Shown piece after piece: positions 12,468 through 33,899 of a stretch of 40,918 bases of DNA. The stretch is from an uncultured Bacilli bacterium (GTDB lineage Bacteria > Bacillota_I > Bacilli_A > RF39 > UBA660), in assembly GCA_944359705.1 (NCBI GenBank), contig CALVSZ010000002.1, positions 1-40,918 of the forward strand. The letters are read 5' to 3'. The notes beneath the pieces were generated by a model. It did no database searches. It was not told the origin of the DNA and worked only from the letters and a program-made list of their open reading frames with translations. Every line of letters begins with the position of its first letter. Within the stretch, counting starts at the first letter, position 1. A program made the translations under genes and the position numbers.

Positions 12468-12489
12468 ACATATCCCTCCTAAATATATT

Positions 12490-12566: not shown

Positions 12567-12593
12567 CTAAACTCCATTTCAAACTTATAAAAA

Positions 12594-12627: not shown

Positions 12628-12656
12628 TTTATAAATTTATAATTTGGCTTTAATTG

Positions 12657-13983: not shown

Positions 13984-13985
13984 CT

Positions 13986-15836
13986 CTAAACATTATCATC
14001 TTTTACTTTTGTTTTTATATATCCCTTTTCTTTTGCTTTATTTAACACCGAAATACATATTTTCTTACCAATAACTTTAACAGCTAAAATAGCATAACAT
14101 GCACTTAATATTGTATCAAAGTATAATAATATTTGATGGTAAGGAATACTTCTATATTTATCTATATCTATTTCAATAGTTTCTATTTGATCATTAATAT
14201 TATGATAAGAATTATCTTTAAAATCATCTCCAAAAACATCTGAATCATATAAATAATCTACATCACAATGTCCCATATTATTACTAGCGCCAGTATTCGT
14301 AGCAACATTAGTTACTTGCATAATTGAAGTTTCATATTGTTCCCCTACAAAGTTTTGTGTTTCAATTAAATCTTCAACCTTAACATCATCTAAATTTGTA
14401 TGTTCTCTTCCCGAATATTGTACACCACCAGCTTGCCATACAAAAAAGTCTGTATCCTTAAGTTCTATTCTTTCTCCATCTTTCTTAAGTGAACTACTAA
14501 TTTGTGTTAATGTATTTTTATTTCCATAGATACCTACTTTAGTAAAACCATAACTATTACATACATTTTTAAAAGTATTCAATAAACCATAATAATCATT
14601 ATCTGAACAGTAAACTTCAAAATCAAGAAATACTGGAATGTTTTCTTTTTCTAAAGTAATACTATTATCAAGTTCATCCATTAATCTATTAAAGTAATTT
14701 ATTAATCTTTTTTCATATTCTGATATATCCATATCCTTAGATACACAAAAATATAAACCTAAAGATATATCATTATTTATAGTATTAGTAATTTGATTTA
14801 TACATTCAGGAATAAAATATCCTGGATTTTCTTTATAATTATAATTATCTCTTGCCACTTCCACAATAACAAAATCAGAAGTTTCTGCTACTCTATTCCA
14901 ATCAATATTAACTTGATAATCAGATATATCAATTCCCCTTGCTATAGCATACATATATGATACTTCATTTGTTTTAGTATCAATACTTTGATATAAATTA
15001 GGAATACTAACAATATCTCCAACTTTAAGTTCACCTTTAGAGTTATTATTGTATAATCTTAAATCTTCTTCTGATAAACCAAACTCTAATGCAAGAGTAT
15101 TATATGTATCATCTTCTTTAGCAATATACTTAGCAGATAATACTAACTTTTCTTTAGAATTTGAACCTTTTTCCATTATAATTTTCGCCAAATTAGTACT
15201 ACTTTTAATTGTACCATCCAATTCTTTAACAATACTAGCAGTACCACTATAATCATACGAAGAGTTATCTTTAATTAAATAGCAATCAAAATCCTTTAAA
15301 GAACAAATATATTCTTCACATAAAGATAATGACATATCACTTCCACTCATTCCAATATATAAATTAGATGCATTAGCTTTATTAATAAAAGCTTCAATTA
15401 AACTATTCTTTTGAATATTATTTAAAGATTTATTATTCATAATACCATCAATGTTTAAAAATATTGGTAAATCTATTTTATATGTTAATAATAATGACTG
15501 AATAAAATCAATGTCCTTATATATACTTCCTAAAGTAGATGCATCAGTATCTAAAACTAAACCAACTGATATATCAAGTTCATTACACTTTTCTAATTGC
15601 TTTTGCAGATATGATAAATCATTACCATTACTTGATAAATGTAATAATACAAAATTATTTGGATGAACTTTAGTATTATACCTAATTCCTATATTTTCAT
15701 ACCCAATTGTATTCTCATCCGTACTATCTAAATAATTATCAGAGATTTCATTTCTAACAAGAAAATAACCCTTACCTACTAAAAAAGGTGCTCCTCCAAA
15801 TAAAAAAGCTAACTCTATTTTTTCTTTCTTTTTCAT
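13986..15836 (-). CDS. GH25-family muramidase with a LysM domain and a C-terminal membrane anchor
   Basis: ARGIDISDYQVNIDWNRVAETSDFVIVEVA and IPVFLDFEVY fit the GH25 motifs (DxSxxQGxIDW, LDxE). There is a LysM-like segment YIAKEDDTYNTLALEFGLSEEDLRLYN...GDIVSIP. The N-terminal ~200 aa look like a second, degenerate GH25-like module. The C-terminal segment ILLYFDTILSACYAILAVKVIG is hydrophobic. Confidence 0.7.
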   Translation of the reverse strand: MKKKEKIELAFLFGGAPFLVGKGYFLVRNEISDNYLDSTDENTIGYENIGIRYNTKVHPNNFVLLHLSSNGNDLSYLQKQLEKCNELDISVGLVLDTDASTLGSIYKDIDFIQSLLLTYKIDLPIFLNIDGIMNNKSLNNIQKNSLIEAFINKANASNLYIGMSGSDMSLSLCEEYICSLKDFDCYLIKDNSSYDYSGTASIVKELDGTIKSSTNLAKIIMEKGSNSKEKLVLSAKYIAKEDDTYNTLALEFGLSEEDLRLYNNNSKGELKVGDIVSIPNLYQSIDTKTNEVSYMYAIARGIDISDYQVNIDWNRVAETSDFVIVEVARDNYNYKENPGYFIPECINQITNTINNDISLGLYFCVSKDMDISEYEKRLINYFNRLMDELDNSITLEKENIPVFLDFEVYCSDNDYYGLLNTFKNVCNSYGFTKVGIYGNKNTLTQISSSLKKDGERIELKDTDFFVWQAGGVQYSGREHTNLDDVKVEDLIETQNFVGEQYETSIMQVTNVATNTGASNNMGHCDVDYLYDSDVFGDDFKDNSYHNINDQIETIEIDIDKYRSIPYHQILLYFDTILSACYAILAVKVIGKKICISVLNKAKEKGYIKTKVKDDNV

Positions 15837-16235
15837 ATTGATCCCCCCAAATTGGTAATTATTTTATCATAAAATATGATTATCGTCAAATTTTAATACT
15901 ATGTAAAATATTTATTCCGTTGTTTAATTTTTTCATTACTTCTTCCATTTTAATATTTAAATCTAAAGTTTCTTTATAATCATCAAATTGTGCATTATAG
16001 ATAATTTTTTTCATATCCAATTTTATCTTTTAAAAACTTACTATGTTTTGATATTATTCAAATGTTTTTTTATTATCTAGAATTCATATTATTCCTTTAC
16101 TAATTTTTCAAAAAAATAATTTTGTATTCCTCTATCTTTAGTAATGCAACACAATATATTATTTACTCTTCTTCAATTGTTTTTTATAATCAGTATTTCA
16201 TTTTCATTATATACAACAATACTATAATAAAATAA

Positions 16236-16264
16236 ATAGTCAGTAATAATTTTTAACTGACTAT
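16236..16264 (-). terminator. Rho-independent terminator after the J-domain gene
   Basis: Perfect 9-bp stem atagtcagt/actgactat with an 11-nt loop, 37 nt downstream of the stop. A U-rich tail (uuuauuuua) follows on the minus strand. Confidence 0.55.
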
Positions 16265-16300
16265 ATTTGTTAATTTATTCTATAATTTTCCTATTTTTCT

Positions 16301-16717
16301 TCAACGACCTTTGTTATGTTTTTTTGAATGATAAATAAGAATTGCTCTTACTTTACGTAATCTTTCCAATTCACTATCTCTTGCATCGTATATTCCATAC
16401 ATTTTTAACAAAATAATACTTAAAGTATCAAAATTACTTTTAGTGTTCTCTTTTGCTTGACTATATGATTTTGATCTTTCAAAATGTAATTCATCAAAAT
16501 GTTGTCTATCATATTCTTTTCTTTTTTCCACGTCAGATAACACTTCATATGCTACAGTTATCTTTTGCATCATATCGTTAGCATTAGGATTGTTAGGATT
16601 CATATCTGGATGATATTTTTTTGCTAATTTTCTAAATGCCCTTTTTATTTCATCTTGGGTAGCATCAGTTGATATTTCTAAAATTTCATAATAATTAGTC
16701 TTATTTTGTAATGACAT
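16301..16717 (-). CDS. J-domain (DnaJ-like) protein
   Basis: NYYEILEISTDATQDEIKRAFRKLAKKYHPDMNP is a canonical J-domain with the HPD tripeptide. There is no Gly/Phe or zinc-finger region, so this is not full-length DnaJ. Confidence 0.85.
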   Translation of the reverse strand: MSLQNKTNYYEILEISTDATQDEIKRAFRKLAKKYHPDMNPNNPNANDMMQKITVAYEVLSDVEKRKEYDRQHFDELHFERSKSYSQAKENTKSNFDTLSIILLKMYGIYDARDSELERLRKVRAILIYHSKKHNKGR

Positions 16718-16845: not shown

Positions 16846-17541
16846 ATGTTATTAAACATATTTAATTTTCTAATTAATAACTTTACTTTCTTTACTGGTT
16901 CATATTCTAATAATGTATTCCCTGATCCTCTACCAAAAGAAGAAGAAGAAAAATATATATTACAAGCTAAAAATGGCGATAAGGAAGCTAGAAGTAAATT
17001 AATAGAACATAACTTAAGATTAGTTGCTCATATTGTAAAAAAATTTGAAACAAATACTAATGACACAGATGATTTAATTGGAATAGGAACCGTAGGATTA
17101 ATTAAAGGAATAGATACCTATTCTCCTAATAAAAATGTAAGACTAACAACATACGTTGCTAAATGTGCAGAAAATGAAATTCTTATGTATTTTAGGGGAG
17201 ATAAAAAGAATTCAAAAAACATAAGTATATATGACAGTATCAGTTATGATAAAGAAGGTAACGAAATTACTATATTAGATATATTAAAAACACCAGATCC
17301 TGATTTTGCCTTAGAAATACATAAAAATGACAATATTGAATTATTAAAAAAATACTTAAATAAACTTACTAAAAGAGAAAAAGAAATAATTGAAGCAAGA
17401 TATGGTTTAAATAATAAAGAAGAAAAAACACAAAAAGAAATTGCCCAAAAATTAGGAATATCTAGAAGTTATGTATCTAGAATCGAAAAAAGAGCAACTA
17501 CTAAAATACTTAGAGAATTTATAAAAAATAACCATGTATAA
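16846..17541 (+). CDS. sigK: Sporulation sigma factor SigK (pro-sigma-K, uninterrupted)
   Basis: LIEHNLRLVAHIVKKFE, IGTVGLIKGIDTY, CAENEILMYFR and LGISRSYVSRIEKRA closely track B. subtilis SigK. The N-terminal hydrophobic pro-sequence ends in ...NNVFPDPLP. Confidence 0.85.
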   Translation: MLLNIFNFLINNFTFFTGSYSNNVFPDPLPKEEEEKYILQAKNGDKEARSKLIEHNLRLVAHIVKKFETNTNDTDDLIGIGTVGLIKGIDTYSPNKNVRLTTYVAKCAENEILMYFRGDKKNSKNISIYDSISYDKEGNEITILDILKTPDPDFALEIHKNDNIELLKKYLNKLTKREKEIIEARYGLNNKEEKTQKEIAQKLGISRSYVSRIEKRATTKILREFIKNNHV

Positions 17542-17609: not shown

Positions 17610-17777
17610 ATGGCAATTAAAGTAACTAATAAAAGAGCTAAAACTGTAAACAATAGACCAAATTGTTTAAAAATAACTAAAAGAACACAAAAAGTAAATT
17701 TACAAAATATTACAGTTAATGGTGTTAAATTTAAAACAAGCGCAAGAGAAGCAAGAACACTAAAAAAATGTGCATAA
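17610..17777 (+). CDS. Divergent ribosomal protein bL28-like small protein (55 aa; absent from the supplied ORF track)
   Basis: My own translation is MAIKVTNKRAKTVNNRPNCLKITKRTQKVNLQNITVNGVKFKTSAREARTLKKCA. It is preceded by the RBS aaggaggg. The pattern NNR....K.TKR....NLQ....VNG.....SAR resembles B. subtilis L28 ([41 protein letters not shown]). Confidence 0.55.
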   Translation: MAIKVTNKRAKTVNNRPNCLKITKRTQKVNLQNITVNGVKFKTSAREARTLKKCA

Positions 17778-17817: not shown

Positions 17818-18633
17818 TTAATGATTAGGAATAACACTTCCAAATCGATCAATCTTAGGAAAAGATGAAATTATTTTTTCTTTTATATTATTATCTTCCT
17901 TAGTTTCTTCTAATTTATGATTAAGCTCATCGAAAAACTCTTGAGGGAATTCTTCCGTTTTTTCTCTTAATTCATCAAAAGTAGTATCATCAAATTCACT
18001 AGAATGTGGGTACTTTTCATTAATTTCTTTTACTAATGACTGAATAATATCATCATTATTAAAAGAAATTTCATTAACATCTTGCTTATTTTCCTTTACT
18101 TCATCCATTATTTCATTAATCATATTAATTTTATTACTATCTTCGTTTACTAAATCAATAAAATCATTATTTTCTAAAGAAATATTTGAATCACCTTCAG
18201 TGTCTTCTTTGCTATCTTCTATAATATCATTTAAAGAATCTTTATTATCTTCTTTTATTAAATCAATAAAATCTTCTTTATCGTTATTTTTTTCTTCTTC
18301 GGTATCATTTAAGAAAACATTTAAAGAAGAATTATCATTAGTAAAAATATCATCTTTTTTAGTGTCTATAAAAGAATCAAAATCCTTATTAAAAAAACTT
18401 TCATCACTTTCTTTATCAGAATTAATATTTGAAGTAGTCTTCTCTATAGTCTTTATTTCAGGAGTATTTTCTTCTATTTTTGGTAAAGTTTCTTTTTTTA
18501 TTGGATGTATTTCAACATTTTTATCATTTGTATTAAATATATCTTTACTATCTAAAAACACTCCATCACTTGCAAATATATCATTATCATTATTAGTAAA
18601 CAAACTATCATCAATATTCTTTTTATTACTCAT
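17818..18633 (-). CDS. Highly acidic low-complexity protein (271 aa); last gene of the F1-like ATPase operon
   Basis: D/E/N/K/I-rich throughout, with no TM segment. Its start lies 3 nt after the gamma-like gene stop. Confidence 0.7.
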   Translation of the reverse strand: MSNKKNIDDSLFTNNDNDIFASDGVFLDSKDIFNTNDKNVEIHPIKKETLPKIEENTPEIKTIEKTTSNINSDKESDESFFNKDFDSFIDTKKDDIFTNDNSSLNVFLNDTEEEKNNDKEDFIDLIKEDNKDSLNDIIEDSKEDTEGDSNISLENNDFIDLVNEDSNKINMINEIMDEVKENKQDVNEISFNNDDIIQSLVKEINEKYPHSSEFDDTTFDELREKTEEFPQEFFDELNHKLEETKEDNNIKEKIISSFPKIDRFGSVIPNH

Positions 18634-18636
18634 AGT

Positions 18637-19425
18637 CTACCCCTTTCTAGTATACTTAGTCTTTTTATAATTTTCTACAGTTTTTAAAATAGTTTCCTCA
18701 TTTTTTTCTTTAATTCTTTTTGCTTTATTTTGCTCTTCAATTTCATCTAATCTATCTAAAGATAAATTTGTGATAATGCTTCTTTTTACATTTTCAGCAG
18801 CATAACAATTCTTTTCAAACATTTTAAGTTCATAACATATATAAAAAGCAGTCATACTACTTAACATTTTATGTATATCAGTTTCTAGTGTAAAGTCTTC
18901 TCCCTCACTGTATTCACCTTCAAACTCTATTGGAAAGACCTTTTTACTCATAAACTCAAATGTTGTCGTATTATAATAATGATTATAATATACATTAATT
19001 TCACTATATGATAAATTTAAAATAGATTCTCTTATTATTTTTTCAATTCTACTAAATTCATCATAAAAACTTTTTTTATCAATTGCTAATATTGTTAAAT
19101 CGTCTCTATATTTTATTTGTTTTCCTATTATTATTTTATAACAATCTTTATCTTTTAATATTTGTCCATTAATCATTGCATTAAAATTGCCACAAAACCC
19201 ATAATCACTGGCTATATATATACTAAGTTTGGGTTTTGACTTATCAGGGACTAATATATTTTTATCTAGTATTAAATTTTTGTTATACATAATCCTAGAC
19301 ATTAATTTTGTAAGTTCCGTACTAACATTCATAAGTTCATTTGCTTTTTTCTTAGCACTATCAACCCTCAGAAGTGAGTGAAAATTCATAACTTTAACTA
19401 CTTTTTTTAAACTCTCAGTTTTCAT
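18637..19425 (-). CDS. F1 gamma-subunit-like protein
   Basis: Its size (262 aa) and its N- and C-terminal helices resemble the gamma coiled-coil ends: SLKKVVKVMNFHSLLRVDSAKKKA... and ...AAENVKRSIITNLSLDRLDEIEEQNKAKRIKEKNEETI. The position in the cassette supports this. Similarity is remote. Confidence 0.55.
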   Translation of the reverse strand: MKTESLKKVVKVMNFHSLLRVDSAKKKANELMNVSTELTKLMSRIMYNKNLILDKNILVPDKSKPKLSIYIASDYGFCGNFNAMINGQILKDKDCYKIIIGKQIKYRDDLTILAIDKKSFYDEFSRIEKIIRESILNLSYSEINVYYNHYYNTTTFEFMSKKVFPIEFEGEYSEGEDFTLETDIHKMLSSMTAFYICYELKMFEKNCYAAENVKRSIITNLSLDRLDEIEEQNKAKRIKEKNEETILKTVENYKKTKYTRKG

Positions 19426-19948
19426 TTTTCACCTTCTTCTTTGGCACTTGTAATTTGACAATGTTATTTAATCTTCTAAACATTGTATAAGTATAATATA
19501 AAAACACAAATATTACTACGAATAGAAGAATAATTGATAAAGCAGTATTTCCATCAGTTGTCAAATAATCTTTAAATATAGTAATTACATAAATAGAAAT
19601 AATTTCTATTAATGAAGATATCAAATTTATTAACATTCTTTTAAAATTAGTAGAAAATAAATCAGATAAAATTATTAATACTATTGAAAAAATAGCATAA
19701 ATATAATTCATTTGAAAATTAATTAAACACCAAACTAAAAACAAATAATTAATAGACACTAAAGAAAATGATAAAATAGCATTATTATTCATATTCAAAA
19801 AGACACCATATAATTTTATTTTATCAATAGAAAATCTTTTAGATAATATTTTTAAAGTAATTGATAAGATAATTAAAAATATAACAGCTACAGCAGTAAA
19901 ACCTAATAAATTATATATAATATCACTATAATTCATAATTTCCCTCAT
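19415..19948 (-). CDS. Polytopic membrane protein (177 aa, about 5 predicted TM helices), unrelated to the F0 a subunit
   Basis: Hydrophobic stretches run through the protein. It overlaps both neighbours (23 nt and 11 nt). It has no a-subunit-like helix with a conserved Arg. Confidence 0.7.
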   Translation of the reverse strand: MREIMNYSDIIYNLLGFTAVAVIFLIILSITLKILSKRFSIDKIKLYGVFLNMNNNAILSFSLVSINYLFLVWCLINFQMNYIYAIFSIVLIILSDLFSTNFKRMLINLISSLIEIISIYVITIFKDYLTTDGNTALSIILLFVVIFVFLYYTYTMFRRLNNIVKLQVPKKKVKNEN

Positions 19949-20189
19949 TAATCATTAAATTAAATTCATTATTACTATTCATATAAAACCCTTTTATATT
20001 TTTAAAAGATATATCTACATCATCACCTTTTATATCAATATTACCATCAAATTCCCCAATTATTGGCAAATAATCAACCATAATAAGTAAATTATAGTCT
20101 TTACTAATTATTCTTACTAATTTTATATTTTCATATATTGTTAATCCATGATCAAGTTCAAATAATCTAACTTTAAAACTAGTGTTCAT
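19926..20189 (-). CDS. F1 epsilon-subunit-like beta-sandwich protein
   Basis: 87 aa. IMVDYLPIIGEFDGNIDIK...FKNIKGFYMNSNNEFNLMINE parallels the epsilon pattern (G..GILP.H.P....L..G.V......GGF.EV....V.ILA). It sits directly after beta. The C-terminal helical hairpin is absent. Confidence 0.5.
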   Translation of the reverse strand: MNTSFKVRLFELDHGLTIYENIKLVRIISKDYNLLIMVDYLPIIGEFDGNIDIKGDDVDISFKNIKGFYMNSNNEFNLMINEGNYEL

Positions 20190-20334
20190 TATATTTACCT
20201 ATATATAAGAATTCATTCTCATCTATTTCATCATATTTTCCAGATAAAATATTTTCAACGTCATTAAGTACATCTTCTAATTCAACATACTCTCCCTTTA
20301 TGTTTTTAAATTGTTTATATACATGTAGAGGTTT
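20179..20334 (-). other. In-frame continuation of the beta-like gene beyond a TAA codon (encodes the missing beta C-terminus)
   Basis: My translation after the TAA at 20335-20337 is KPLHVYKQFKNIKGEYVELEDVLNDVENILSGKYDEIDENEFLYIGKYNEH-stop. This aligns with the canonical beta C-terminus (QPFFVAEVFTGSPGKYV.L..T...F..IL.GE.D..PE.AFY.VG). The frame ends at 20179 and overlaps the next ATG (20189) by 11 nt. Confidence 0.7.
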
Positions 20335-22843
<2,509 letters not shown>

Positions 22844-22845
22844 AA

Positions 22846-23857
<1,012 letters not shown>

Positions 23858-23876
23858 TTAATCACTCCTTTGCCTA

Positions 23877-23905
23877 TTATATTATTATTATAGCATTAAC
23901 TATAT
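23877..23905 (-). promoter_or_regulatory. Possible internal sigma-A-type promoter ahead of the ATPase cassette
   Basis: On the minus strand TTGCAA, a 17-nt spacer, then TATAAT, in the only sizeable intergenic gap of the operon. No terminator hairpin is seen in that gap. AT-rich DNA produces such matches easily. Confidence 0.4.
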
Positions 23906-23915
23906 TTTATTGCAA

Positions 23916-24650
23916 TTATTTTATTTCATTTAAATATGACGGTCCCATTAATAAAGTAAAACTATCAAAATAAACACATTGATCATAGTTTAACTCTATA
24001 TTATAGTAATCATTCTTTGCAATTACTTGTTCATTTCTCATATCTAATATTTTATATGTATCAGTTTCTCTATCATAGTATTCAATACCATTTCCAACAT
24101 TTACTCTAATATACGACATCGGACTTAAAGTTATTTCTTCATTTCCGATTGTAATAATAGTTTCCATTAAGAAAAAGTATAAATCTACTCCATCATATAA
24201 AAAACTATACTCTAATTCTTTATCATATTCATTAGATTTTAATAAATACTTATTATTTTCTTTATCCCAAGTAATTGTAGAATAGTTAACTATTTTCTCT
24301 TGTTTATAATTTTTTAGTGGTCTAACTACTGTCATACTTTTAGGAAATAAAACCTTAACTTCATTATCTTTAAAATAAATAGGTACCGTAGTTAAATCAA
24401 TTTTTTTGTTAACAATATCCATATCAACAATATTATCTTGACGATTTAATTTTAATACAGCATCATATTCAACTTTCATACCTGCAAAATATTGATAAAA
24501 GGAAGCATTATGATCGGTAGTATGATTTACGTATAATTTATGTATACTATAAATTGCAAAAACTAAAATTAATATAATAATTAGTGATATTGGAATTAAT
24601 ACTCCATAATATTTATTAATAAAAGTTTTAAATTTCTCCTTTTTATTCAT
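23916..24650 (-). CDS. N-terminally anchored extracytoplasmic protein (244 aa)
   Basis: A single TM helix (YGVLIPISLIIILILVFAIYSI) is followed by a beta-rich domain. The RBS ggaggcagtt lies directly after the stop of the upstream gene. Confidence 0.75.
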   Translation of the reverse strand: MNKKEKFKTFINKYYGVLIPISLIIILILVFAIYSIHKLYVNHTTDHNASFYQYFAGMKVEYDAVLKLNRQDNIVDMDIVNKKIDLTTVPIYFKDNEVKVLFPKSMTVVRPLKNYKQEKIVNYSTITWDKENNKYLLKSNEYDKELEYSFLYDGVDLYFFLMETIITIGNEEITLSPMSYIRVNVGNGIEYYDRETDTYKILDMRNEQVIAKNDYYNIELNYDQCVYFDSFTLLMGPSYLNEIK

Positions 24651-24660
24651 AACTGCCTCC

Positions 24661-26079
24661 TTATTTTATCTTTACTTTATATCTTACATCAACATCAATA
24701 AAATATCCACTAAATTTAACATCACTTAAACTTATAGTAACAAACTCACCTATGTTATCAAATTTAAATGAACCAGACACACTTTCTTTATTAGCAAGCG
24801 TACCATTACTAAATGTGCTAGCATACCTTACTGTTTCGCCATTTTCTAATTCACTATTTAAATTAACTGTTAATGCATCCAAAGAATAATCTTTATCTAG
24901 AATTACACTGTAATATATTGTCTTTCCAGCAATCTTATCTATTCTAAGCGAAATATCAGGCTTACCTACCGTAACACTAGTTTCATCAAACATTTCTTCT
25001 ACTCTAACACCCTCAACGTAATAAATATACTTAAATTTCAAATTATATCTAATATTAGCTTTTAAACCAGTAATTATAAAATTAGTATTCATTTTATCAA
25101 AATATCCGACACTAACAAGACGATTATCACTATCATATACTTCTACAAATACTGATTCATATTCATTAAGTGGATCGTATATTACATAATCAATAGATAT
25201 ATTTCCAACAGAAGGGTTAACAGATATAATTGACGTAGTTTTTGTTTTGTCAATGATATCATCGATATTTACATCATTATTATCATTTCCTGTATTATTA
25301 CCACCTGTTTGATCTTGATTATTATTTTCACCCGTTTGATTATTGTCATTACCACCAGTATTATCTTGGTTATTACCTTGATTATTATTGGATTCATCAT
25401 CAGGTTTATCTTCTGGCTTTGTATATTCATTTGTACTTCCAATAATTTTCTTTAAATCAATTGTTTGACCAGCAATAACTAATTCTTCATTAGCAATATC
25501 AAAAGTATAATTAGAAGTAATAATTGTTGTTGGTTCAAAGGTTTTTAAATTAACTTCATTATTTAATAATACTGCATTACCAGTTTTATCTAATTCTACA
25601 ATCAAATAATTTTTAGTGTTTAAACTACCGTTATCAGTTTTAATAGAAGGGTCAATCAATAAGTACTTACGATCAGCTATTTTTAAAAACTTACTTTGAG
25701 TAGTTCTAACAACTGTTTCATCTTCATAGACAATAACATTGTCTTCTCCACTAGAAGTTACTTCATAAAATTTTCCATATAATTGCATTATATCTTTACT
25801 TGGATTGTAAATAATACCATTCTTTCCAAGTAAATACATATCATCATCTTCCATAAGATAGTAATCGTCATTCCATTTTATTTTTAATACAGATTCACTT
25901 TCTAGTTTAATTAAATTTTTATCTTTATCATATAATATAGAACCAATATCGATAAAATATTCTATCTTTCCATTTTTAATTACTTTGGCAATAAAAAAGG
26001 AAAAGATGATAATTAAAATCAAACTAGCGAGTACTATTAAACCAAAATATACTTTATTTCTTTTATCATATTTCCTCAT
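24661..26079 (-). CDS. N-terminally anchored surface protein (472 aa) with an N/G/Q/D-rich linker and two beta-sandwich modules
   Basis: TM helix VYFGLIVLASLILIIIFSFFIA, a ~190-aa juxtamembrane domain, the linker PEDKPDDESNNNQGNNQDNTGGNDNNQTGENNNQDQTGGNNTGNDNND, then FN3/Ig-like modules (e.g. IITGLKANIRYNLKFKYIYY). Confidence 0.8.
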   Translation of the reverse strand: MRKYDKRNKVYFGLIVLASLILIIIFSFFIAKVIKNGKIEYFIDIGSILYDKDKNLIKLESESVLKIKWNDDYYLMEDDDMYLLGKNGIIYNPSKDIMQLYGKFYEVTSSGEDNVIVYEDETVVRTTQSKFLKIADRKYLLIDPSIKTDNGSLNTKNYLIVELDKTGNAVLLNNEVNLKTFEPTTIITSNYTFDIANEELVIAGQTIDLKKIIGSTNEYTKPEDKPDDESNNNQGNNQDNTGGNDNNQTGENNNQDQTGGNNTGNDNNDVNIDDIIDKTKTTSIISVNPSVGNISIDYVIYDPLNEYESVFVEVYDSDNRLVSVGYFDKMNTNFIITGLKANIRYNLKFKYIYYVEGVRVEEMFDETSVTVGKPDISLRIDKIAGKTIYYSVILDKDYSLDALTVNLNSELENGETVRYASTFSNGTLANKESVSGSFKFDNIGEFVTISLSDVKFSGYFIDVDVRYKVKIK

Positions 26080-26088
26080 AATTGCCTC

Positions 26089-29000
26089 CTATTTATTTCC
26101 TTTTACTTCAATATAGTTATTAGATGTAGACACCGGTACTTCTGAACCGTCTTCTCCCAATACATTAAAAGTAAAATATACTTCATATAAAGAGTTAAGA
26201 TCAAATGTTATATTTTCTGGAGAAATTACAAATTCGTGTTCTAACGTATCTGTACCATTATCTATTTTCACAAAATTATTTTCTTGTCCTTCACCTATTT
26301 TATAAGTACCTTCAGCTACCTTGTCTGATAATTTATATATCTCATATTTCATAGAAACTATTTTTTCTAAGTTAGAGCTATTTTTAAAAGTCATTTTAAT
26401 ATTATCAGTACCAAGTGCACCAGAAACTGAACCTAATGAAACACCTGATGGACCAGTTGTATAAACTTCATAATTAGTAGTAATTGTTTTTCTTATATAA
26501 TTATCTACAGGCTGTCCATTCAAATCAGCTTCTTGCCTTAAACTAAAGTTATTTGTATATATTTCATAACTTACTTCAATAATGTATTTAATATCTGGAA
26601 CTAAGTCAACTTGAATATTATATTTATCTGGATTATCTACACTACTTGCAAATTTAATCATTTTTAATTCATCCACAGATAGATTTTCAGCCTTAGCAAC
26701 TTCTGTTTTTGTCTCATTAGTTAAAAGTCTTACTGTATAAACACCATTAGTAATAACTTTATCACTATCTTTTATACCTACTCCAACCTCGATTGAATAT
26801 ACACCGTCAACTAAATTGGACATTTTACTAATTGTTGTTTCTGGTTGTTTTAGTTCATTTAATACAAGAAAGTTATTATATATTTCAACATATTCATCCT
26901 CTTTTGTTGTATCTGTAATAGCAATTAATTCTAATCTAAAGTAATCAGCACCATATATGGCATCAATTGAATTTGTTATATCAAACTCAAATTTCACATT
27001 AGCATTATCTATTATTTGATCATTAGTAATGGTTTCTGTACCAATTATTTCATCATTTTCCCATAAATTTATAAGTAAATCATAGTTTTTACCATAATTA
27101 ACAAGTTCGTTGTTTAATGTTAAATCAAAACTAATTTTTCTATTTAGATATTTTATTTCTGTACTCTCAGACAAATGATTATATGTAATATTCCCAAAAA
27201 GTTCACTACCTCTTAATGAAGTAAACGAATACTCAACAGGTCTACATTCACCTTGATTACATGTATCAATATCATTAAGTTGTGTATAAGCTTCGCCATT
27301 TTTATCTAACTTTGCAAATAATTTATACTTATATGTTGTAGCATCATCTAAATTATATATATTAAATATTGTTTCTTTAGCATATCCATTTTCTACAGTA
27401 ATCTCTTTTTTATAAGTTTTTATTAATTCATCTGTTTCATTATTATATAATTCTAAATAAATATAGTATTTATTATCTTCTTTTATAAATCCTCTGCTTA
27501 ACATATTACTAGTAATACCCGTAGTATCAATAGTAATATCTGCACCATTTATAACGCCATCATAAGTAGTTGAAACGTCAGGAGTAATACTATAAAATAT
27601 GAAATTAGTATCTCCTACTGGCTTAACAGAAGTTTTAGATAAAGATTTAAACGTAATAGTATAATTACCATATTTCATTCCTTCATAAGTTTTTGCTAAA
27701 GTTATTCTAGTATTAAATAACTTATTTTCATTATCAGATACTTCATCAAAGGTATATAATTTATTAGACCTATCTATTAAATTATATAAAGTAGCATTAT
27801 TACCTGACATTTGGTAATAATAAACTCCAGGCATTGAAGTCGCTTCTATAAGTTTACTTTGGCTATCCAAAACTAAGTATGATCCTTGACCTGATTCGTT
27901 ACTATTTTGTTGAACTAAATATCCAATATCAGAAGTGTTTCCAATTAAACCATTATCATAAATAGCATTAACTTCTACAGTTAAATTTCTATTATTAAAG
28001 TTTTCTATTTCTGCATATTTAATTTCTTTATATAATACACATGAATCATCTGTACATTCTTTAAAGTTTGTAAAAGTCTTATTATATTTAATAGAATCTC
28101 CATCTTTTATTAATACTTGAAAAGCAGATATTCTCTTTAAAACGCTATTAATATTCCCTGTTGGAAGTATCTTAACTACTACTTTATTACTAATTTGGTT
28201 ATTAGTAATACTATATTCTATATTTAAATCTTCTTCTTTATAAAATCCGTCAAAAGTATATTTATTTTCAATATCTACTGAAACATCACTATCAACATTT
28301 CCTGTTTTAATAGTAGCTATTTTATAATAAATATCATATCTAGTATTATTAGTTAAACCACTTATTGTAAATTCAGTATCTGTATTATTTTCAAATTCTA
28401 CTTTATATTCTTCAGATCCGACTCTATAATTTATATAATATTTAGATTCATCCATTCCTTTATATAGAGCCTTATCAAAATCTTGTACTCTAAATGAATA
28501 TGTAATACTATCTTCTGTACTTGATACAACATTTAATTTAAAATCTGGCTTATCTTTTTCTAATTTTAATGGAGAAGAATCAACATATTTTTTATCTGTT
28601 CTTCCAGGATAGTAATAATCAATTGTACCATCTTTATCACTATCTACAGTTATGTAGAATCTAAATTTAAATGTATTACCTCTATTTAAAGTTATATTTC
28701 CATCTTTTAAAAGAATATCTTTTTCATTATAATCAGTACCATTTGTATGAAAAATATTTCTAGTATATTTCCCTGATGTAACTCCTACCGGACTAAAGTC
28801 ATGACATTCATTTGTTATTGTATTACAAACCCCTAAAACTAACTTAATATCAGATTCTGGGAATAATACATTTAAATTATTATAGTCAAAATCGGCAACT
28901 ATTTCTACTAAACTACCATTTCTTTTAGCAGTAATTGTAGGATCACCTAAAATATCATCTGCAATTAATGTATCATCAATTTTAAACGCATAGATATTAT

Positions 29001-31608
29001 TTTCTACTGGAATAACATTTATACCAGCATTATCAGTTGCATCTGTTATTTTAAAAATATAATATTTTGTTAATATACCATCTGTTTTTTTCTTTAAATC
29101 ATCAATAGTATATCCAAACGTATCTTTAGCTGTTATTTTAAATTTATTATCATAAAAATCACTTTTTATATTAGTATTAAATACTTTTTCACCAATTAAT
29201 TTACCATCTTCTAACTTATCAGTGTTGCTAGCATAAACTTCTATCTTCAAATTAGCTAAATTTAAAGCTTCTATTTCACTATTATTAGTTGATGTTAATT
29301 GGTTTCCTCCTAATGAGAATACATTATCTTCATTACTTATTTTTTCTTCTCCCCAATTAACGGTTAAAGGAACTATCTCTGCTGTTTTTACAGTAAATCC
29401 TTCACCAATTTGAACATCTTCTTGTAATCCATTTCCATCTTTTAAATTAACATCTCCAAACAGTTCAAATACATAATCAGTATTAGCTACTAAATTAGTT
29501 ATTTCAAAATTACTACTTAAAGTAATTGGATCAAACTCTATATTTTGATAATTATATTCAACAGTAGAATTACTAGCCTTATAATATCTAATATAAAGTT
29601 CATTAATTTCCGGGAAGCATTCTCTTCCTTCAATAGGAACAGTACAATTTTTATCTTCAATATATATTGTACCTGAAATAGTTCTAAAGTTTGTTTTTTC
29701 TGAATTTATTTCATATCTTATAGCAGGCACTGCCCCAGATACAAAACTATTACTAAACATTGATTCAATTTCAACTGTTTTTTCATTATCATAATATTCT
29801 AAGACAACATTAAATCTATATGATTGGTTAGATTTTAATTCATTACCATCGATAGGAACATCTACACTTTTAGCATCTTTTGTTTCAATTATTTTAACAG
29901 GTTCATACCCACCTTCTTCAGTTACATCACTATATTCATAGATTTTATATGTAAATTTAGTTAATCCATTATCAGGATCATTAATATTGCCAATAGTTAA
30001 TTTAGCAGAATTTTCTTCTTTGTTAACTGTGGCTTCCAAGCTTTCTAAAATTGGGGCTTTTTTCAAGGTTTTTAAGCTAAGTGCTAAAGTATAACTTCCA
30101 TCTTCTCTATAACTACCTTCATTATTTACATCACTATAGATAATACTACCATACATAACATTTCTAAGAACTCCCGTATAAGAAGTATTAGAATTTAATC
30201 CTTCAAATAATACATAAACTTCCTTTTGATCTTTTGCTTCAATATTTTTAGTTTCAACTAATTCATTATTATTATCATATAATTCTAAATCAAAACTATT
30301 AACGTAAGTATTATCATCCATCAAAACTAAGAATGAAAGTTCTGAAGTAGATGCATAATCTTTTTTCAAATCTAATCCCAAAGTTTCTGTTCTAAATACC
30401 CTTTGAAAGTATTGTCTTTCATATGTTAATTCATCTGTTTGATAATTTCCTACAATAGAAACAATATAATTGGTATCTGGTTCTAAGATGCCTGTCATAG
30501 TCGATATTTCAATTGTATTAGAATCCCCACTTACTGTATCTGTATATACAGTTTTAGCTGTTTTCATATTTGTAATGGAAATATTTAAATCTCCTGTGAT
30601 AACATCATAATTATCTATAACTGCTATTAATAAATCCATTTTATTGGCAGTAACATTTGCTTCTAGTAATTTAAATTGCGGATTTTTTGTAATAGTTACT
30701 TCTGGCTCTTCAGTGTTATCTTCTCCACCTGGATTTTCTGTATCATTACCTCCTATTTGACCCTGATTATTTCCATCTCCTTCACCAGTATTTCCTCCTT
30801 GATTATTATCACCATCTTGATTATTACCATCATCAGGATTTTCTGGTTTTTGTTCTTCTTCTGGAGGTATTATATCAATATTTTCATCACCATTTATAGT
30901 AATTTGTTCTAATGAAACTTTTTCCTCGTTATTAAAATAAATATTTTTATCCCCTAAATTTATAACAGTATTTTCTCCAATATAGAAATAAGTTCCATCA
31001 GCTGTAGCACTTCTTGTATTAACACCATCAGAAATTACTACTACTCCATTCTCTATATAATTAAATTCAAAAAAGTTTTCACTAGAATACAAAATGTCAG
31101 AGTTTCCTGCTAATTTTAAAGTAAGTTTTTCCCCAGATATTATATATTTATTTTCACTTATCTTACCTAACCAATTAGATAAATTTAATTCACCATTTAT
31201 TGTTTTAATGATATACCCATTATTTCCTTTTTCTATTAGTGATTTATTAGTTATATTATAATACGGAATTATGGTTTCATTAATTTTAGACAAATCCAAT
31301 ATAACACCATTTTGCAAATAGGCAATATCACCATTTTTATAATGTATAAAATTATCTAATGAAGATACTGCTTTTTTATCTTCTGTATTGTTAAATACTA
31401 ATTCACCATTTATATTTTCACGATATTCTGTTCCTTCATCAAACCTATCAATTACAGTTGTACCTTTTTCAAAAGAAATAATATATCCACTATTTTGAAA
31501 AGTTGTTTTATTCCCTCTAGTCAAAAAAAATACTAATGCAATTAATATAATTAATGAAGTTATACTAATAGTCATTATAAGTCCAAAACTTCGTTTCATT
31601 ACCTTCAT
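26089..31608 (-). CDS. Giant N-terminally anchored surface protein (1839 aa) with ~15 divergent FN3/Ig-like beta-sandwich modules
   Basis: TM helix FGLIMTISITSLIILIALVFFL, a juxtamembrane domain and a G/N/D/Q/E-rich linker. These are followed by repeated ~95-110-aa modules ending in motifs such as LEPDTNYIVSIVGNY, LNSNTSYTGVLRNV, LKSNQSYRFNVVLEY, LVANTDYVFELFGD, LTNNTRYDIYYKIA and LDDATTYKYKLFAK. Confidence 0.9.
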   Translation of the reverse strand: MKVMKRSFGLIMTISITSLIILIALVFFLTRGNKTTFQNSGYIISFEKGTTVIDRFDEGTEYRENINGELVFNNTEDKKAVSSLDNFIHYKNGDIAYLQNGVILDLSKINETIIPYYNITNKSLIEKGNNGYIIKTINGELNLSNWLGKISENKYIISGEKLTLKLAGNSDILYSSENFFEFNYIENGVVVISDGVNTRSATADGTYFYIGENTVINLGDKNIYFNNEEKVSLEQITINGDENIDIIPPEEEQKPENPDDGNNQDGDNNQGGNTGEGDGNNQGQIGGNDTENPGGEDNTEEPEVTITKNPQFKLLEANVTANKMDLLIAVIDNYDVITGDLNISITNMKTAKTVYTDTVSGDSNTIEISTMTGILEPDTNYIVSIVGNYQTDELTYERQYFQRVFRTETLGLDLKKDYASTSELSFLVLMDDNTYVNSFDLELYDNNNELVETKNIEAKDQKEVYVLFEGLNSNTSYTGVLRNVMYGSIIYSDVNNEGSYREDGSYTLALSLKTLKKAPILESLEATVNKEENSAKLTIGNINDPDNGLTKFTYKIYEYSDVTEEGGYEPVKIIETKDAKSVDVPIDGNELKSNQSYRFNVVLEYYDNEKTVEIESMFSNSFVSGAVPAIRYEINSEKTNFRTISGTIYIEDKNCTVPIEGRECFPEINELYIRYYKASNSTVEYNYQNIEFDPITLSSNFEITNLVANTDYVFELFGDVNLKDGNGLQEDVQIGEGFTVKTAEIVPLTVNWGEEKISNEDNVFSLGGNQLTSTNNSEIEALNLANLKIEVYASNTDKLEDGKLIGEKVFNTNIKSDFYDNKFKITAKDTFGYTIDDLKKKTDGILTKYYIFKITDATDNAGINVIPVENNIYAFKIDDTLIADDILGDPTITAKRNGSLVEIVADFDYNNLNVLFPESDIKLVLGVCNTITNECHDFSPVGVTSGKYTRNIFHTNGTDYNEKDILLKDGNITLNRGNTFKFRFYITVDSDKDGTIDYYYPGRTDKKYVDSSPLKLEKDKPDFKLNVVSSTEDSITYSFRVQDFDKALYKGMDESKYYINYRVGSEEYKVEFENNTDTEFTISGLTNNTRYDIYYKIATIKTGNVDSDVSVDIENKYTFDGFYKEEDLNIEYSITNNQISNKVVVKILPTGNINSVLKRISAFQVLIKDGDSIKYNKTFTNFKECTDDSCVLYKEIKYAEIENFNNRNLTVEVNAIYDNGLIGNTSDIGYLVQQNSNESGQGSYLVLDSQSKLIEATSMPGVYYYQMSGNNATLYNLIDRSNKLYTFDEVSDNENKLFNTRITLAKTYEGMKYGNYTITFKSLSKTSVKPVGDTNFIFYSITPDVSTTYDGVINGADITIDTTGITSNMLSRGFIKEDNKYYIYLELYNNETDELIKTYKKEITVENGYAKETIFNIYNLDDATTYKYKLFAKLDKNGEAYTQLNDIDTCNQGECRPVEYSFTSLRGSELFGNITYNHLSESTEIKYLNRKISFDLTLNNELVNYGKNYDLLINLWENDEIIGTETITNDQIIDNANVKFEFDITNSIDAIYGADYFRLELIAITDTTKEDEYVEIYNNFLVLNELKQPETTISKMSNLVDGVYSIEVGVGIKDSDKVITNGVYTVRLLTNETKTEVAKAENLSVDELKMIKFASSVDNPDKYNIQVDLVPDIKYIIEVSYEIYTNNFSLRQEADLNGQPVDNYIRKTITTNYEVYTTGPSGVSLGSVSGALGTDNIKMTFKNSSNLEKIVSMKYEIYKLSDKVAEGTYKIGEGQENNFVKIDNGTDTLEHEFVISPENITFDLNSLYEVYFTFNVLGEDGSEVPVSTSNNYIEVKGNK

Positions 31609-31635
31609 ATTAAGTAGCCTCCTATTATTAAAATA

Positions 31636-31664
31636 ATTATATCATTTGCGATATTTAAAGTCAA
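31636..31664 (-). promoter_or_regulatory. Sigma-A-type promoter of the surface-protein/F1-like ATPase operon
   Basis: On the minus strand TTGACT, a 17-nt spacer, then TATAAT (ttgactttaaatatcgcaaatgatataat). The RBS aggagg lies at 31618-31623 and the ATG at 31606-31608. Confidence 0.55.
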
Positions 31665-31674
31665 TTATAACCAA

Positions 31675-31705
31675 AAATAAATATCGGAAAATCCGATATT
31701 TATTT
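31675..31705 (-). terminator. Rho-independent terminator of the first TasA-like gene
   Basis: Perfect 14-bp stem aaataaatatcgga/tccgatatttattt with a 3-nt loop. It overlaps the stop codon and has a U-rich 3' side on the minus strand. Confidence 0.65.
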
Positions 31706-32368
31706 ATCTGTAAATGTTGAGGTCAATTTATCACCAGAAACTGCTGTAAATACAACATTACCAGTAAAATCACCATAATCAGTATTATTTTGTGGTACAC
31801 CATTATCACTAATCCAAACTACAATATAAAATGAATAAGTTGTATTTTTAGCAACTAAGCAAGATTCATATAAGACATTATTTTGCATACTATTAATTTC
31901 ACCGTATATTTTAGGCTCAGCATAAAAATCAACAAATGCCCATTTTAAATTAGAATAATTAGAATTATCGGCTGCTATTAAATCAAGATTTCCTTCAAAA
32001 ACAGCACCATAATCACTTTTATTAGTAATATTTATTTTATATATTTGACAAACTTGATCTCCATTTTTATCAACACAATAAACATCATTATTACCTAATA
32101 TAGAACTATTAATTAAACTATCTTTTACAGGAATCATACCATCAACACTATCTTTATTTACCTTTTCTACATTTAAACTAAAATTAACTACTGCTGATTC
32201 TATTTCATGTAATAATTCGCTTTTAGAACTTGCTGTAAAAAAAGCAATACTTATACTTAAACAAGTTACAAAAAATGCTAAAAATAAAAATACAAAATAA
32301 AATACACTAACACCATTTTTTCTTTTTTTATTACTATTATTAACTAAGCTACTTTCCAAATTTTCCAT
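31700..32368 (-). CDS. Secreted protein with a SipW/TasA-camelysin-type signal peptide (paralog 3)
   Basis: N-terminus ...VFYFVFLFLAFFVTCLSISIAFFTASSKSE. It shares FSLNVEKVN, the Cys pair YCVDKNGDQVCQIYKINITN, NLKWAF and a C-terminal GDFTGNVVFTAVSG...TSTFT with the two neighbours. Confidence 0.6.
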   Translation of the reverse strand: MENLESSLVNNSNKKRKNGVSVFYFVFLFLAFFVTCLSISIAFFTASSKSELLHEIESAVVNFSLNVEKVNKDSVDGMIPVKDSLINSSILGNNDVYCVDKNGDQVCQIYKINITNKSDYGAVFEGNLDLIAADNSNYSNLKWAFVDFYAEPKIYGEINSMQNNVLYESCLVAKNTTYSFYIVVWISDNGVPQNNTDYGDFTGNVVFTAVSGDKLTSTFTDK

Positions 32369-32461: not shown

Positions 32462-33109
32462 CTAAGCTGTGAATGAAGCAGAGATTTCACCACTACCAGC
32501 AGCTTTAAATGATACACTTCCAGAATAACTACCAGATTCAGTTCCAGATTGATCTGATTCAGTATTTTCTAGATATATAAGTAAATAATATACTACTGGA
32601 GTATCAGCATTAACAGCTGCACCACTGTGCATATCATAGCCTGTAGCTTTAGCAAAAGTATCATTTTTCAAGAAAGTTTCTGCATTAGTTTCGCTTCCAG
32701 TAAATACAGAATATTTCCAACGATCTTTTGTACCTGCAGTTGTAGTTAAATTATCAATAGTGATACTTGCTGTACTAAGTTGTTGACCAGATTCAGCAGT
32801 AATTCTATATAAATGGCAACCTGTATAACCATCTTTTTCACATTTTGCTTGTAAAGCTTGATTAATACCAGTAGTGTCTCCACCGTTTAAATCAGCAGGA
32901 ACCAAGTCATTAGATGGTGCTGTTCCACCCAAATTAACTTTTTCTACATTTAAAGTAAAGCTAGATGCAACGTCTAATGTCTGTCCAGTAATAGTATTAT
33001 CATTTGTAGCACTTGCGCTAAAAAATGCAAATGTTGCACCAATAATAGCTACTATAAGTGTTGCTACACCTATAACTCCATAAAATATTCCCTTTCCATT
33101 GTTTTCCAT
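32462..33109 (-). CDS. Secreted protein with a SipW/TasA-camelysin-type signal peptide (paralog 2)
   Basis: GVIGVATLIVAIIGATFAFFSASATND resembles the camelysin/TasA signal region (..GGGTFAFFSD..). It contains FTLNVEKVN, KCEKDGYTGCHLYRITAES and GSYSGSVSFKAAGSGEISASFTA. It is visibly more G+C-rich than its surroundings. Confidence 0.65.
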   Translation of the reverse strand: MENNGKGIFYGVIGVATLIVAIIGATFAFFSASATNDNTITGQTLDVASSFTLNVEKVNLGGTAPSNDLVPADLNGGDTTGINQALQAKCEKDGYTGCHLYRITAESGQQLSTASITIDNLTTTAGTKDRWKYSVFTGSETNAETFLKNDTFAKATGYDMHSGAAVNADTPVVYYLLIYLENTESDQSGTESGSYSGSVSFKAAGSGEISASFTA

Positions 33110-33218: not shown

Positions 33219-33899
33219 TTAACCACCCATTGTAAATGTACCAGTAACTCCACTTCCATTTGAAGAAGTAAAGTTAACAACTCCAGTAAATCCACCAACA
33301 TCAGTTTTATTTTGATCTTCTAAAGTATCATCAATCCATATCATTATATAATATGACTTAGTACCAGGAGTAAAATCTAAATCTCCTCCAGTACCTGCTG
33401 GGATATTATCTCCACTTATTATTGTAGTATCTTCTTTGGTAAAGAAAGATTCTTCATCAGTTTTAGGAGTAGATGAATCAGTCATTAATTGCCATTTCAA
33501 ATTAGTAATGCCTTCATTTGTTAATGTCAATGTACCATTTACATTTATAACTGCTTTTCCTTGATTACTTACTTTTAATTCATATATTTGGCAAACAGTA
33601 TTTCCATCCTTATCCATACACATCTTATTACCTGTAGCAGTATCTCCAGCTACAGCATTTGTTAATAATTCTTTTTTAAGCGGGATTAAATCTCCTGAAG
33701 CTTGATCACTTAATCTTGTTACTTCCAAACTTAATCCAACTTTTGCAGCACTACCTTTAATTGTATCATTGTTACTTGCTTGTAATGAGAAATATGCAAA
33801 TGTTGCTCCCACCATAGCCACTACTAAAGTAAGCATGGCAACAATCATATAAAAAGTCCCTTGCCCTTTTCTTTCATTTTTATTTAATTCTTCTTCCAT
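33219..33899 (-). CDS. Secreted protein with a SipW/TasA-camelysin-type signal peptide (paralog 1)
   Basis: MIVAMLTLVVAMVGATFAYFSLQASNNDTIKG, LSLEVTRL, MCMDKDGNTVCQIYELKVSN, NLKWQL and GGFTGVVNFTSSNGSGVTGTFT. Confidence 0.65.
   Translation of the reverse strand: MEEELNKNERKGQGTFYMIVAMLTLVVAMVGATFAYFSLQASNNDTIKGSAAKVGLSLEVTRLSDQASGDLIPLKKELLTNAVAGDTATGNKMCMDKDGNTVCQIYELKVSNQGKAVINVNGTLTLTNEGITNLKWQLMTDSSTPKTDEESFFTKEDTTIISGDNIPAGTGGDLDFTPGTKSYYIMIWIDDTLEDQNKTDVGGFTGVVNFTSSNGSGVTGTFTMGG

Follow-up and report, generated by a model that had tools for sequence, protein, structure and literature searches.

The window, a stretch of 40,918 nucleotides (nt) from an uncultured Bacilli bacterium (assembly GCA_944359705.1, contig CALVSZ010000002.1; G+C content about 25%), carries an operon-like block of 11 open reading frames (ORFs), all on the minus strand and running from position 31608 down to 17818 (Table 1). 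Three genes for N-terminally anchored surface proteins come first. They are followed by a cassette related to F-type ATPases, in the order c, b-delta, alpha, beta, an epsilon-sized protein, a transmembrane (TM) protein and gamma, and by a gene for an acidic protein. The cassette and its relation to the surface proteins are the subject of this work. An original prediction, made from the DNA letters without database searches, had described the same 11 genes as a non-canonical F1-like ATPase cassette joined to giant surface proteins. Its c, alpha, beta and gamma assignments are borne out by Pfam matches; the other seven of the 11 products have no significant match in Pfam or NCBIfam.

Layout and transcription signals

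From the first gene to the last, the intergenic spacings are 9, 10, 61, -8, 2, 1, -11, -23, -11 and 3 nt (negative values are overlaps), where the -11 between beta and the epsilon-sized gene assumes that beta is read through to 20179. The claim that all gaps but the 61-nt one are overlaps or at most 10 nt thus holds only if a stop codon within beta, discussed below, is read through. The promoter-like site ahead of the giant gene is the top match of a promoter scan of the region (11 of 12 consensus positions plus the TG extension), in agreement with the near-consensus promoter that had been predicted, and it presumably functions as a promoter; an AGGAGG ribosome-binding site lies between it and the ATG of the giant gene. 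The 61-nt gap (23855-23915) has no hairpin, as had been stated. A second promoter-like site is present there, however, from which the ATPase genes could also be transcribed apart from the surface-protein genes. Such sites are only suggestive because matches of this kind occur at chance frequency in AT-rich DNA (132 found across the region, 139.6 expected). Hairpins had been placed on both sides of the block. The upstream one stands; the downstream one is an A/T-only palindrome at which the terminator scan makes no call. Genetic code 4 was considered and rejected: genes read with table 11 are uninterrupted, the sampled genes have 20 TGG codons, and one of them ends in TGA.

Table 1. Features of the operon and its immediate surroundings (positions in the window; aa, amino acids)
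Feature	Position	Strand	Basis or remark
TasA/camelysin-like secreted paralogs (222, 215, 226 aa), SipW-type signal	31700-32368, 32462-33109, 33219-33899	-	
Terminator-like hairpin, 14-bp stem and T-run, closing the upstream TasA-like gene	31675-31705	-	
Sigma-70-type promoter-like site ahead of giant gene, TTGACT-17-(TG)TATAAT	31636-31664	-	consensus scan
Giant surface protein, 1839 aa: N-terminal TM anchor, acidic/Gly/Asn-rich linker, long beta-rich ectodomain	26089-31608	-	
N-anchored surface protein, 472 aa, low-complexity linker	24661-26079	-	one N-terminal TM segment
p244, 244 aa: N-terminal TM helix, all-beta ectodomain	23916-24650	-	ORF, AlphaFold2
Promoter-like site in 61-nt gap before c gene, TTGCAA-17-(TG)TATAAT	23887-23915	-	10/12 plus TG, consensus match only
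c-subunit homologue, 81-aa hairpin without ion-binding carboxylate	23609-23854	-	PF00137, 3e-8
Putative b-delta fusion (peripheral stalk): TM helix, long helix, linker, delta/OSCP-like domain	22846-23616	-	AlphaFold2 model
alpha, short, 436 aa	21533-22843	-	PF00006, 1e-71
beta, 450 aa when intact; broken here by in-frame TAA at 20335-20337	20179-21531	-	Pfam, 4e-64
Epsilon-sized protein, 87 aa	19926-20189	-	identity from position and size only
Polytopic membrane protein, 177 aa, 4-5 TM	19415-19948	-	hydropathy; candidate a-subunit replacement as membrane stator or partner
gamma, 262 aa	18637-19425	-	PF00231, 5e-20
Acidic cytoplasmic protein, 271 aa	17818-18633	-	
55-aa ORF beside sigK	17610-17777	+	weakly L28-like (18 bits, below cut-off)
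sigK	16846-17541	+	NCBIfam equivalog

Catalytic subunits

The alpha protein, of the length predicted, lacks about 15 N-terminal and 60 C-terminal residues of canonical alpha in alignments with PDB chains; its nucleotide site and arginine finger are intact. The motifs that had been quoted for alpha and beta are present, and they are conserved. Among 89 family members, the alpha P-loop GDKKTGKT occurs in 87 and the arginine-finger motif LSVSRLG in 88; these and the beta motifs Walker A, GxGER(S/T)RE (which carries the catalytic Glu) and Walker B are kept in 87-89 of the 89. Gamma scores 43.5 on TIGR01146, far below the cut-off of 194. The epsilon-sized gene is kept in all of the 80 cassette loci (stretches around the cassette) that were collected by a scan of species-representative genomes. 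Its product has no Pfam or PDB match and thus no support at the sequence level, it is without the epsilon regulatory helices, and a comparison by hhalign of its profile with approximate PS3 and E. coli epsilon sequences was not significant.

The in-frame TAA in beta had been overlooked in the original prediction. Beta homology continues for 52 codons past it, to 20179. What does this stop represent? The stop and seven further nonsynonymous changes around it might be read as the start of decay, which would make the cassette a pseudogene remnant, but this is extremely improbable. Comparison with a conspecific contig (L082) shows identity over 21,311 nt save for eight substitutions, all of them within one 46-nt patch (20306-20351), all to A or T and all nonsynonymous, one of which makes the TAA. 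Ten conspecific contigs, each with an alpha 100% identical to that of the window, have an intact 450-aa beta with TCA (Ser) at the position of the stop; in the 80 related loci the codon is for Ser in 79 and for Thr in one (L080), and no locus has a stop there. Every other cassette gene is intact. An exact look-up of the 398-aa truncated beta gave no match. To judge from these comparisons, the stop is no feature of the system: it arose either as a local artefact of assembly or consensus calling or, in a single strain, as a very recent lesion. Recoding of TAA was also rejected, as the conspecific contigs have a Ser codon and the stop lies inside the cluster of eight substitutions.

Membrane sector and peripheral stalk

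Hydropathy gives the c homologue two TM segments. The protein aligns over its full length with the c subunits of A. woodii, I. tartaricus and chloroplasts, the best PDB match being A. woodii c1/c2, and it scores under the NCBIfam c cut-offs. Its RNPE loop is invariant across the family, and in most loci c is conserved at least as well as alpha and beta (79-95% identity in the main group). The ion-binding Glu of known c subunits aligns with Ser in the cassette c. Every family member has Ser or Ala at this position, and neither Asp nor Glu occurs anywhere in helix 2 of the 54 distinct sequences of the family. In rotary ATPases both this helix-2 carboxylate and the a subunit are needed for ion translocation. 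No a-like (AtpB) gene is detectable in the operon, as had been claimed. The sole polytopic protein, that of 177 aa, is found by tblastn in 77 of the 80 loci; Gly48 is the one invariant residue of its family, which has no conserved Arg, and a comparison with PDB at expectation values (E) up to 10 found no similarity, a subunits included. By the established rotary mechanism, a c-ring without the carboxylate and with no a subunit would therefore be unable to translocate ions. It is unlikely that the cassette encodes an ordinary synthase coupled to ions, and the view of it as a non-canonical F-type ATPase gains support.

The peripheral stalk is a different matter. The protein that had been called b-like has no sequence-level match in Pfam or in a PDB sequence search; hydropathy places a single TM segment at its N-terminus. 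AlphaFold2 modelling with 41 homologues (predicted local distance difference test, pLDDT, 81) gives a helix over residues 2-74, comprising the TM segment and a long stalk, and then a disordered linker, an eight-helix domain and a small beta domain. When the model was compared with PDB by Foldseek, ranks 1-35 were all delta/OSCP chains or mycobacterial b-delta chains, the top match being E. coli delta (6oqr_W, E 6e-3, probability 0.99). The b assignment is thus upheld by the structure model, and the earlier statement that delta is absent has to be withdrawn: the model supports, without proving, a delta that is present and fused to b. If so, the cassette would have a stator able to hold alpha3beta3 against a turning rotor. 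The stalk family has 634 clusters in public data. A scan of metagenomes with the stalk profile found no relatives more distant than those of the genome survey.

Distribution and gene neighbourhoods

Alpha has thousands of close relatives in metagenomes, of about 434-441 aa. The 80 loci are all from metagenome-assembled genomes (MAGs) labelled uncultured Bacilli, 'Tenericutes', 'Clostridium sp. CAG:302/CAG:914' or 'Mycoplasma sp. CAG:472'; we take the hosts to be small-genome Bacilli of the RF39/RFN20 type. By tblastn and clustering, the core of c, b-delta, alpha, beta, epsilon-sized, 177-aa TM and gamma genes is present in 80 of 80 loci and has the same order in 79, the exception being L080, where gamma stands between alpha and beta. 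Independent metagenome contigs show the same layouts. Because the core is present in every locus, the layouts recur in independent contigs and the catalytic motifs are kept, the cassette appears to be functional and not decaying. At positions 8900-13600 of L064 (CP091726.1, a complete MAG chromosome) the cassette ORFs are fragmented (b 67 aa, alpha 307, beta 212, gamma 78), and this is probably a result of assembly indel errors and not of decay.

Conservation of the surface genes next to the cassette in related genomes had been set as a test of their linkage, and such conservation is observed. Among 52 loci with at least 8 kb of upstream sequence, orthologues of the giant, 472-aa and p244 genes stand upstream of the cassette, in that order, in 34, and the 472-aa gene always accompanies the giant. 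The remaining upstream flanks consist of 12 with a gene for a 245-aa N-anchored protein (F12) and six with neither p244 nor F12. Giant and/or TasA-like genes are present in 41 of the 42 loci that have both flanks. The trio genes were also seen in other settings: at L093 (2361-10753) spoVS and a gene for a Mur ligase come after the trio, and at L091/L092 (10001-19603) a p244-like gene lies ahead of the gene for a 2930-aa protein.

Two clades bring p244 closer still. The 'Mycoplasma sp. CAG:472' group (17 loci, L062-L078) carries p244 within the cassette itself: its gene is placed after that for the TM protein and before gamma, with spacings that are tight or negative (cassette portion about 12880-15250 in each locus). 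A gene for a protein of 104-120 aa (F16) is also inserted before gamma in this group, and a small class-III-signal/Flp-like protein is encoded after gamma. L080, the most divergent locus, has a 405-aa ORF directly after epsilon (13793-15007, plus strand) that represents a fusion of a polytopic N-domain with the p244 ectodomain (hhalign probability 98%, E 5e-14). This ORF takes the position of the 177-aa gene, which is not separately present; genes for a second p244 paralog and for a protein of 1632 aa come after it. The insertion of p244 in the one group and its fusion in the other argue for a real functional tie. Of the surface components, p244 appears from gene order to have the tightest tie to the ATPase, and it is the best-supported partner.

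Surface proteins and other partners

The three surface proteins have one N-terminal TM segment each and the 177-aa protein is polytopic, in accord with the original prediction. In the giant, the single TM-like segment spans residues 10-28. The supposition that such giants are rich in FN3 domains was not confirmed: the giant has no Pfam, NCBIfam or PDB match, and self-comparison reveals no internal repeats. Pfam, NCBIfam and PDB sequence searches with the 472-aa and acidic 271-aa proteins likewise gave nothing usable. The AlphaFold2 model of p244 has a pLDDT of 91.4, and Foldseek found no fold match to it in PDB (best E 0.014, template-modelling score 0.15); its family comprises 110 clusters, all without a name. 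The gene after gamma varies: here it encodes the acidic protein, most relatives have one for a coiled-coil protein (F10), and in others a small class-III-signal/Flp-like protein is encoded in this place; hhalign finds only a weak match of 23 columns between the acidic protein and F10.

Adjacent to the operon on its upstream side are three TasA-like paralogs, which had also escaped notice. They carry a signal of the GATFAYFSA type. The copy scored in the window falls below the cut-offs of PF12389 (17.7, cut-off 22.5) and TIGR04088 (14.6, cut-off 19); in the family as a whole, PF12389 (Peptidase_M73) matches eight of 43 members (best 3e-7), mainly over the signal region, and there is no PDB match to TasA. 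Of 54 loci, 39 have members of this family near the cassette, in some cases accompanied by a Peptidase_S26-like gene, and 15 have none.

Could the cassette be an export or assembly ATPase, comparable to FliI/FliH/FliJ of type III systems, that powers the secretion, insertion or polymerization of TasA-like, Flp-like or giant proteins, possibly via the c-ring? The flanking SipW-signal paralogs invite this idea, as do, in several clades, a Peptidase_S26-like gene and, directly after gamma, a class-III-signal/Flp-like gene. FliI-type ATPases are also the next-best family matches, and there is the established precedent of an F1 relative in protein export (also noted in PMC11864180). The idea is nevertheless improbable. 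The candidate cargo has signals of the usual Sec or SipW kind, or signal anchors; none of the genes considered resembles a translocon component; and the TasA-like module is missing from the 15 loci just mentioned. FliI/SctN forms a homo-hexamer, whereas the cassette has distinct alpha and beta genes, and the products of both resemble F1 much more than FliI (401 against 161 bits for alpha). A gamma/c-ring rotor with a stalk points to rotation and not to threading.

Relation to known F-type and F1-like ATPases

Where does the cassette belong? Alpha and beta (the intact conspecific beta was used for NCBIfam scores) fall below the cut-offs of every family compared. For canonical atpA (TIGR00962/NF009884) alpha scores 374 against 484 and 401 against 554, and for canonical atpD (TIGR01039) beta scores 445.5 against 462.85, about 17 bits short. 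The scores are 370 against 600 and 379 against 850 for Type 2 alpha and beta (MMOB1660/MMOB1670), 308 against 520 and 410 against 570 for Type 3 (MSC_0619/MSC_0618), and 337 against 750 and 408 against 752 for N-ATPases (TIGR03324/TIGR03305). With the FliI family, the best scores are 161 (alpha) and 231 bits (beta) against cut-offs of about 380-620. As controls, canonical alphas pass atpA (564-715 bits) and true Type 3 alphas pass their own model (523-555 bits). When a library of representatives at 50% identity was compared with the cassette alpha, members of the family scored 560-448 bits and were separated by a gap from all others, at 311 or less. Type 3 alphas, at 245-247 bits, lie below canonical alphas, which reach 311. 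The best PDB matches are to canonical Firmicute (Bacillus-type) F1 (alpha 298, beta 357 bits), and the M. mobile G1-ATPase (9io5) scores 256 and 283 bits. Judged by these comparisons of sequence, the cassette is best viewed as a separate F-type offshoot, nearest to canonical F1 and outside Type 2 and Type 3. The suggested resemblance to the mycoplasma clusters thus finds no support in the scores, and gene order and composition also differ.

With the canonical F1Fo enzyme (Type 1), the cassette shares homologous alpha, beta, gamma and c subunits, a delta-like stalk head and intact catalytic motifs. It differs from it in having neither a nor the Glu of c, in the putative fusion of b with delta, in an alpha shorter by about 70 aa, in an epsilon-sized protein of just 87 aa, and in a gene order of c/b-delta/alpha/beta/epsilon/TM/gamma in place of the canonical atpIBEFHAGDC; all of its subunits score below the NCBIfam equivalog cut-offs. 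The comparison extends to the Na+-type enzymes of anaerobic Firmicutes and Fusobacteria, as c is closest to those of A. woodii and I. tartaricus. The N-ATPase (atpDCQRBEFAG) is also an accessory F-type operon with rearranged genes (PMC2881411), but it keeps a and an ion-binding c and translocates Na+, and its order, beta-epsilon-Q-R-a-c-b-alpha-gamma with AtpQ/AtpR, is not that of the cassette, which is without a. A membrane-anchored b helix and a delta domain in one polypeptide are known from mycobacteria, and mycobacterial chains (7njk_d and others) are among the Foldseek matches of the stalk. The mycobacterial enzyme, however, is a true synthase coupled to protons, has a and b' subunits and keeps the carboxylate in its c, and no sequence similarity to the cassette stalk was detected.

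Type 3 clusters, like the cassette, are derived from F1, stand in an operon with surface proteins, have an alpha shortened at the N-terminus and are presumed to be non-bioenergetic, and their linkage to cargo is likewise frequent but not absolute (PMC12994834). The Type 3 'F1-like X0' (MSC_0618/0619) is needed for antibody cleavage by MIB-MIP (PMC12994834). The order in these clusters is a 12-TM protein, a cytosolic protein, gamma, epsilon, a 2-TM membrane protein, alpha and beta (PMC3369863), and neither Type 2 nor Type 3 clusters of mycoplasmas have c or a membrane-anchored stalk (PMC3369863; PMC12994834). The cassette, in contrast, has c and b-delta, no 12-TM protein, a different cargo and a different host clade; scans with family libraries found no MIB/MIP-like genes in the window or among the neighbouring genes of related loci. 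With the Type 2 G1-ATPase of M. mobile (MMOB1660/1670) it has in common that an F1-like motor goes together with giant surface proteins anchored at the N-terminus (Gli123, Gli349 and Gli521 in M. mobile). Type 2 motors, however, are cytoplasmic twin chains without a c-ring or TM stalk, their beta has a 30-kDa N-terminal extension that is missing from the 450-aa cassette beta, and the gli genes are at a separate locus, whereas the cassette adjoins its surface genes. GliD of M. mobile has been hypothesized to derive from a b-delta fusion (PMC11864180). No similarity was detected between GliD and the cassette stalk.

The nearness to canonical F1 raises the question of whether the cassette might be the housekeeping F-type ATPase after all, one that pumps H+ or Na+ via a diverged membrane sector, with the 177-aa protein as a cryptic a, polar residues in the role of the carboxylate, and the surface genes as neighbours by descent. 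All canonical subunits but a are present, the full stalk included; alpha and beta are nearer to canonical F1 than to Type 2 or 3, beta missing the atpD cut-off by so little; and conservation is high, as in a housekeeping system. The surface trio can moreover occur away from the cassette (none lies within 10 kb at L093 and L091/L092), and no second F- or V-type ATPase is seen in the data, which cover cassette loci and their flanks. This explanation is nonetheless improbable. The c carboxylate is absent in every family member, which by the established mechanism of F/V-ATPases removes the ion-binding site, and the 177-aa protein, with its one invariant Gly, has neither a conserved Arg nor similarity to a subunits. 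The embedding of p244 in the cassette, or its fusion into it, in two clades also counts against the housekeeping role, as does the loss of part of the C-terminal domain of alpha and of the regulatory helices of epsilon.

Proposed function

The reading favoured here, to which a probability of roughly 55% is assigned, is that the cassette encodes an F-type-derived rotary ATPase that is not coupled to ions and that acts on envelope proteins, and not in energy conservation, and that it belongs to a family of its own, conserved among uncultured low-GC gut Bacilli. A catalytically competent alpha3beta3 head would hydrolyse ATP and turn a rotor of the c-ring and gamma, the latter as a shaft with the small epsilon-sized protein, and the b-delta fusion together with the 177-aa protein would serve as the stator that opposes the rotor. 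With Ser or Ala in c and with no a, the rotor would turn without ion movement. Torque, or a conformational cycle, might then be relayed within the membrane to the single-pass surface proteins, p244 being the first candidate for a coupling partner and the 472-aa and 1839-aa proteins coming after it. The output may be the moving, deploying or remodelling of envelope proteins. Rotation, the coupling to surface proteins and the nature of the output are suggested here by the anatomy of the cassette and by the precedent of mycoplasmas, whose F1-like ATPases drive gliding and MIB-MIP function (PMC11864180; PMC12994834).

Several observations weigh against this proposal, the occurrence of the trio without the cassette among them. 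The surface and TasA-like proteins carry ordinary Sec-type anchors or signals, and therefore no special exporter is needed. In 21 loci p244 is replaced by the unrelated N-anchored F12, with which hhalign finds no homology, and the six loci that have a full upstream flank and neither of the two genes have been noted. The synteny comes largely from related MAGs, and shared ancestry inflates the counts. As to the subunits, the epsilon assignment draws on size and position only. That of delta draws on modest Foldseek E-values (6e-3) and on template-modelling scores that are low because of the long helix. The N-domain of the L080 fusion is only weakly similar to the 177-aa family (11.5 bits; hhalign E 0.009).

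A bolder version of the proposal is tentative. In it, the ion-blind c-ring passes torque to the anchored surface proteins, and the whole might constitute a new machine for surface motion, adhesion or motility in gut Bacilli that are abundant though uncultured. The cassette would also be an evolutionary intermediate between the F1Fo synthase and the F1-like motors of mycoplasmas, as it may have kept c and the b-delta stalk and lost a and ion coupling.

Other features of the window

The gene near the operon that had been named as sigK passes TIGR02846 (302.6 bits, cut-off 298.65) and points to a spore-forming, walled lineage and not to a mollicute. Its identity is thus upheld, and its proximity appears to be incidental. 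A link of the cassette to sporulation was rejected as a conserved feature, as sigK is adjacent in conspecific contigs only.

The stretch upstream of the TasA-like genes (33971-40317, minus strand) encodes a MarR regulator, an ABC/FtsX fusion and a pair of ABC half-transporters; in a second locus layout, homologues of this pair are found close upstream of the F12 and c genes, with one 134-aa gene between. The other end of the window (1-16717) has the appearance of a mobile or defence island. It contains Bro-N, an amidase with five LysM repeats, a SWIM protein, two PRiA4_ORF3 proteins and an integrase fragment, and further AbiEii with DUF6088, Fic, a LysM/GH25 protein and a DnaJ-domain protein. 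A truncated copy of the amidase (12657-12971) is 97.5% identical to 3082-3441.

Implications

To our knowledge, repurposed F1-like ATPases have so far been described in mycoplasmas only, where they act in gliding and antibody cleavage. In the literature searched, an incomplete library, no description of such a cassette outside mycoplasmas was found. If the favoured reading is correct, the idea of the repurposed F1 would extend to a large group of uncultured Bacilli of the human and animal gut; the scale of the family in public data is considerable, with thousands of alpha clusters and 634 stalk clusters. There would then be a natural and complete rotor-stator ATPase with a c-ring unable to bind ions. 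This would bear on the use of rotary torque for work that does not involve ions and on the origin of the mycoplasma motors from F1Fo. The cassette further marks out a group of conserved surface proteins with novel folds, in gut bacteria about which little is known, as probable components of an active machine.

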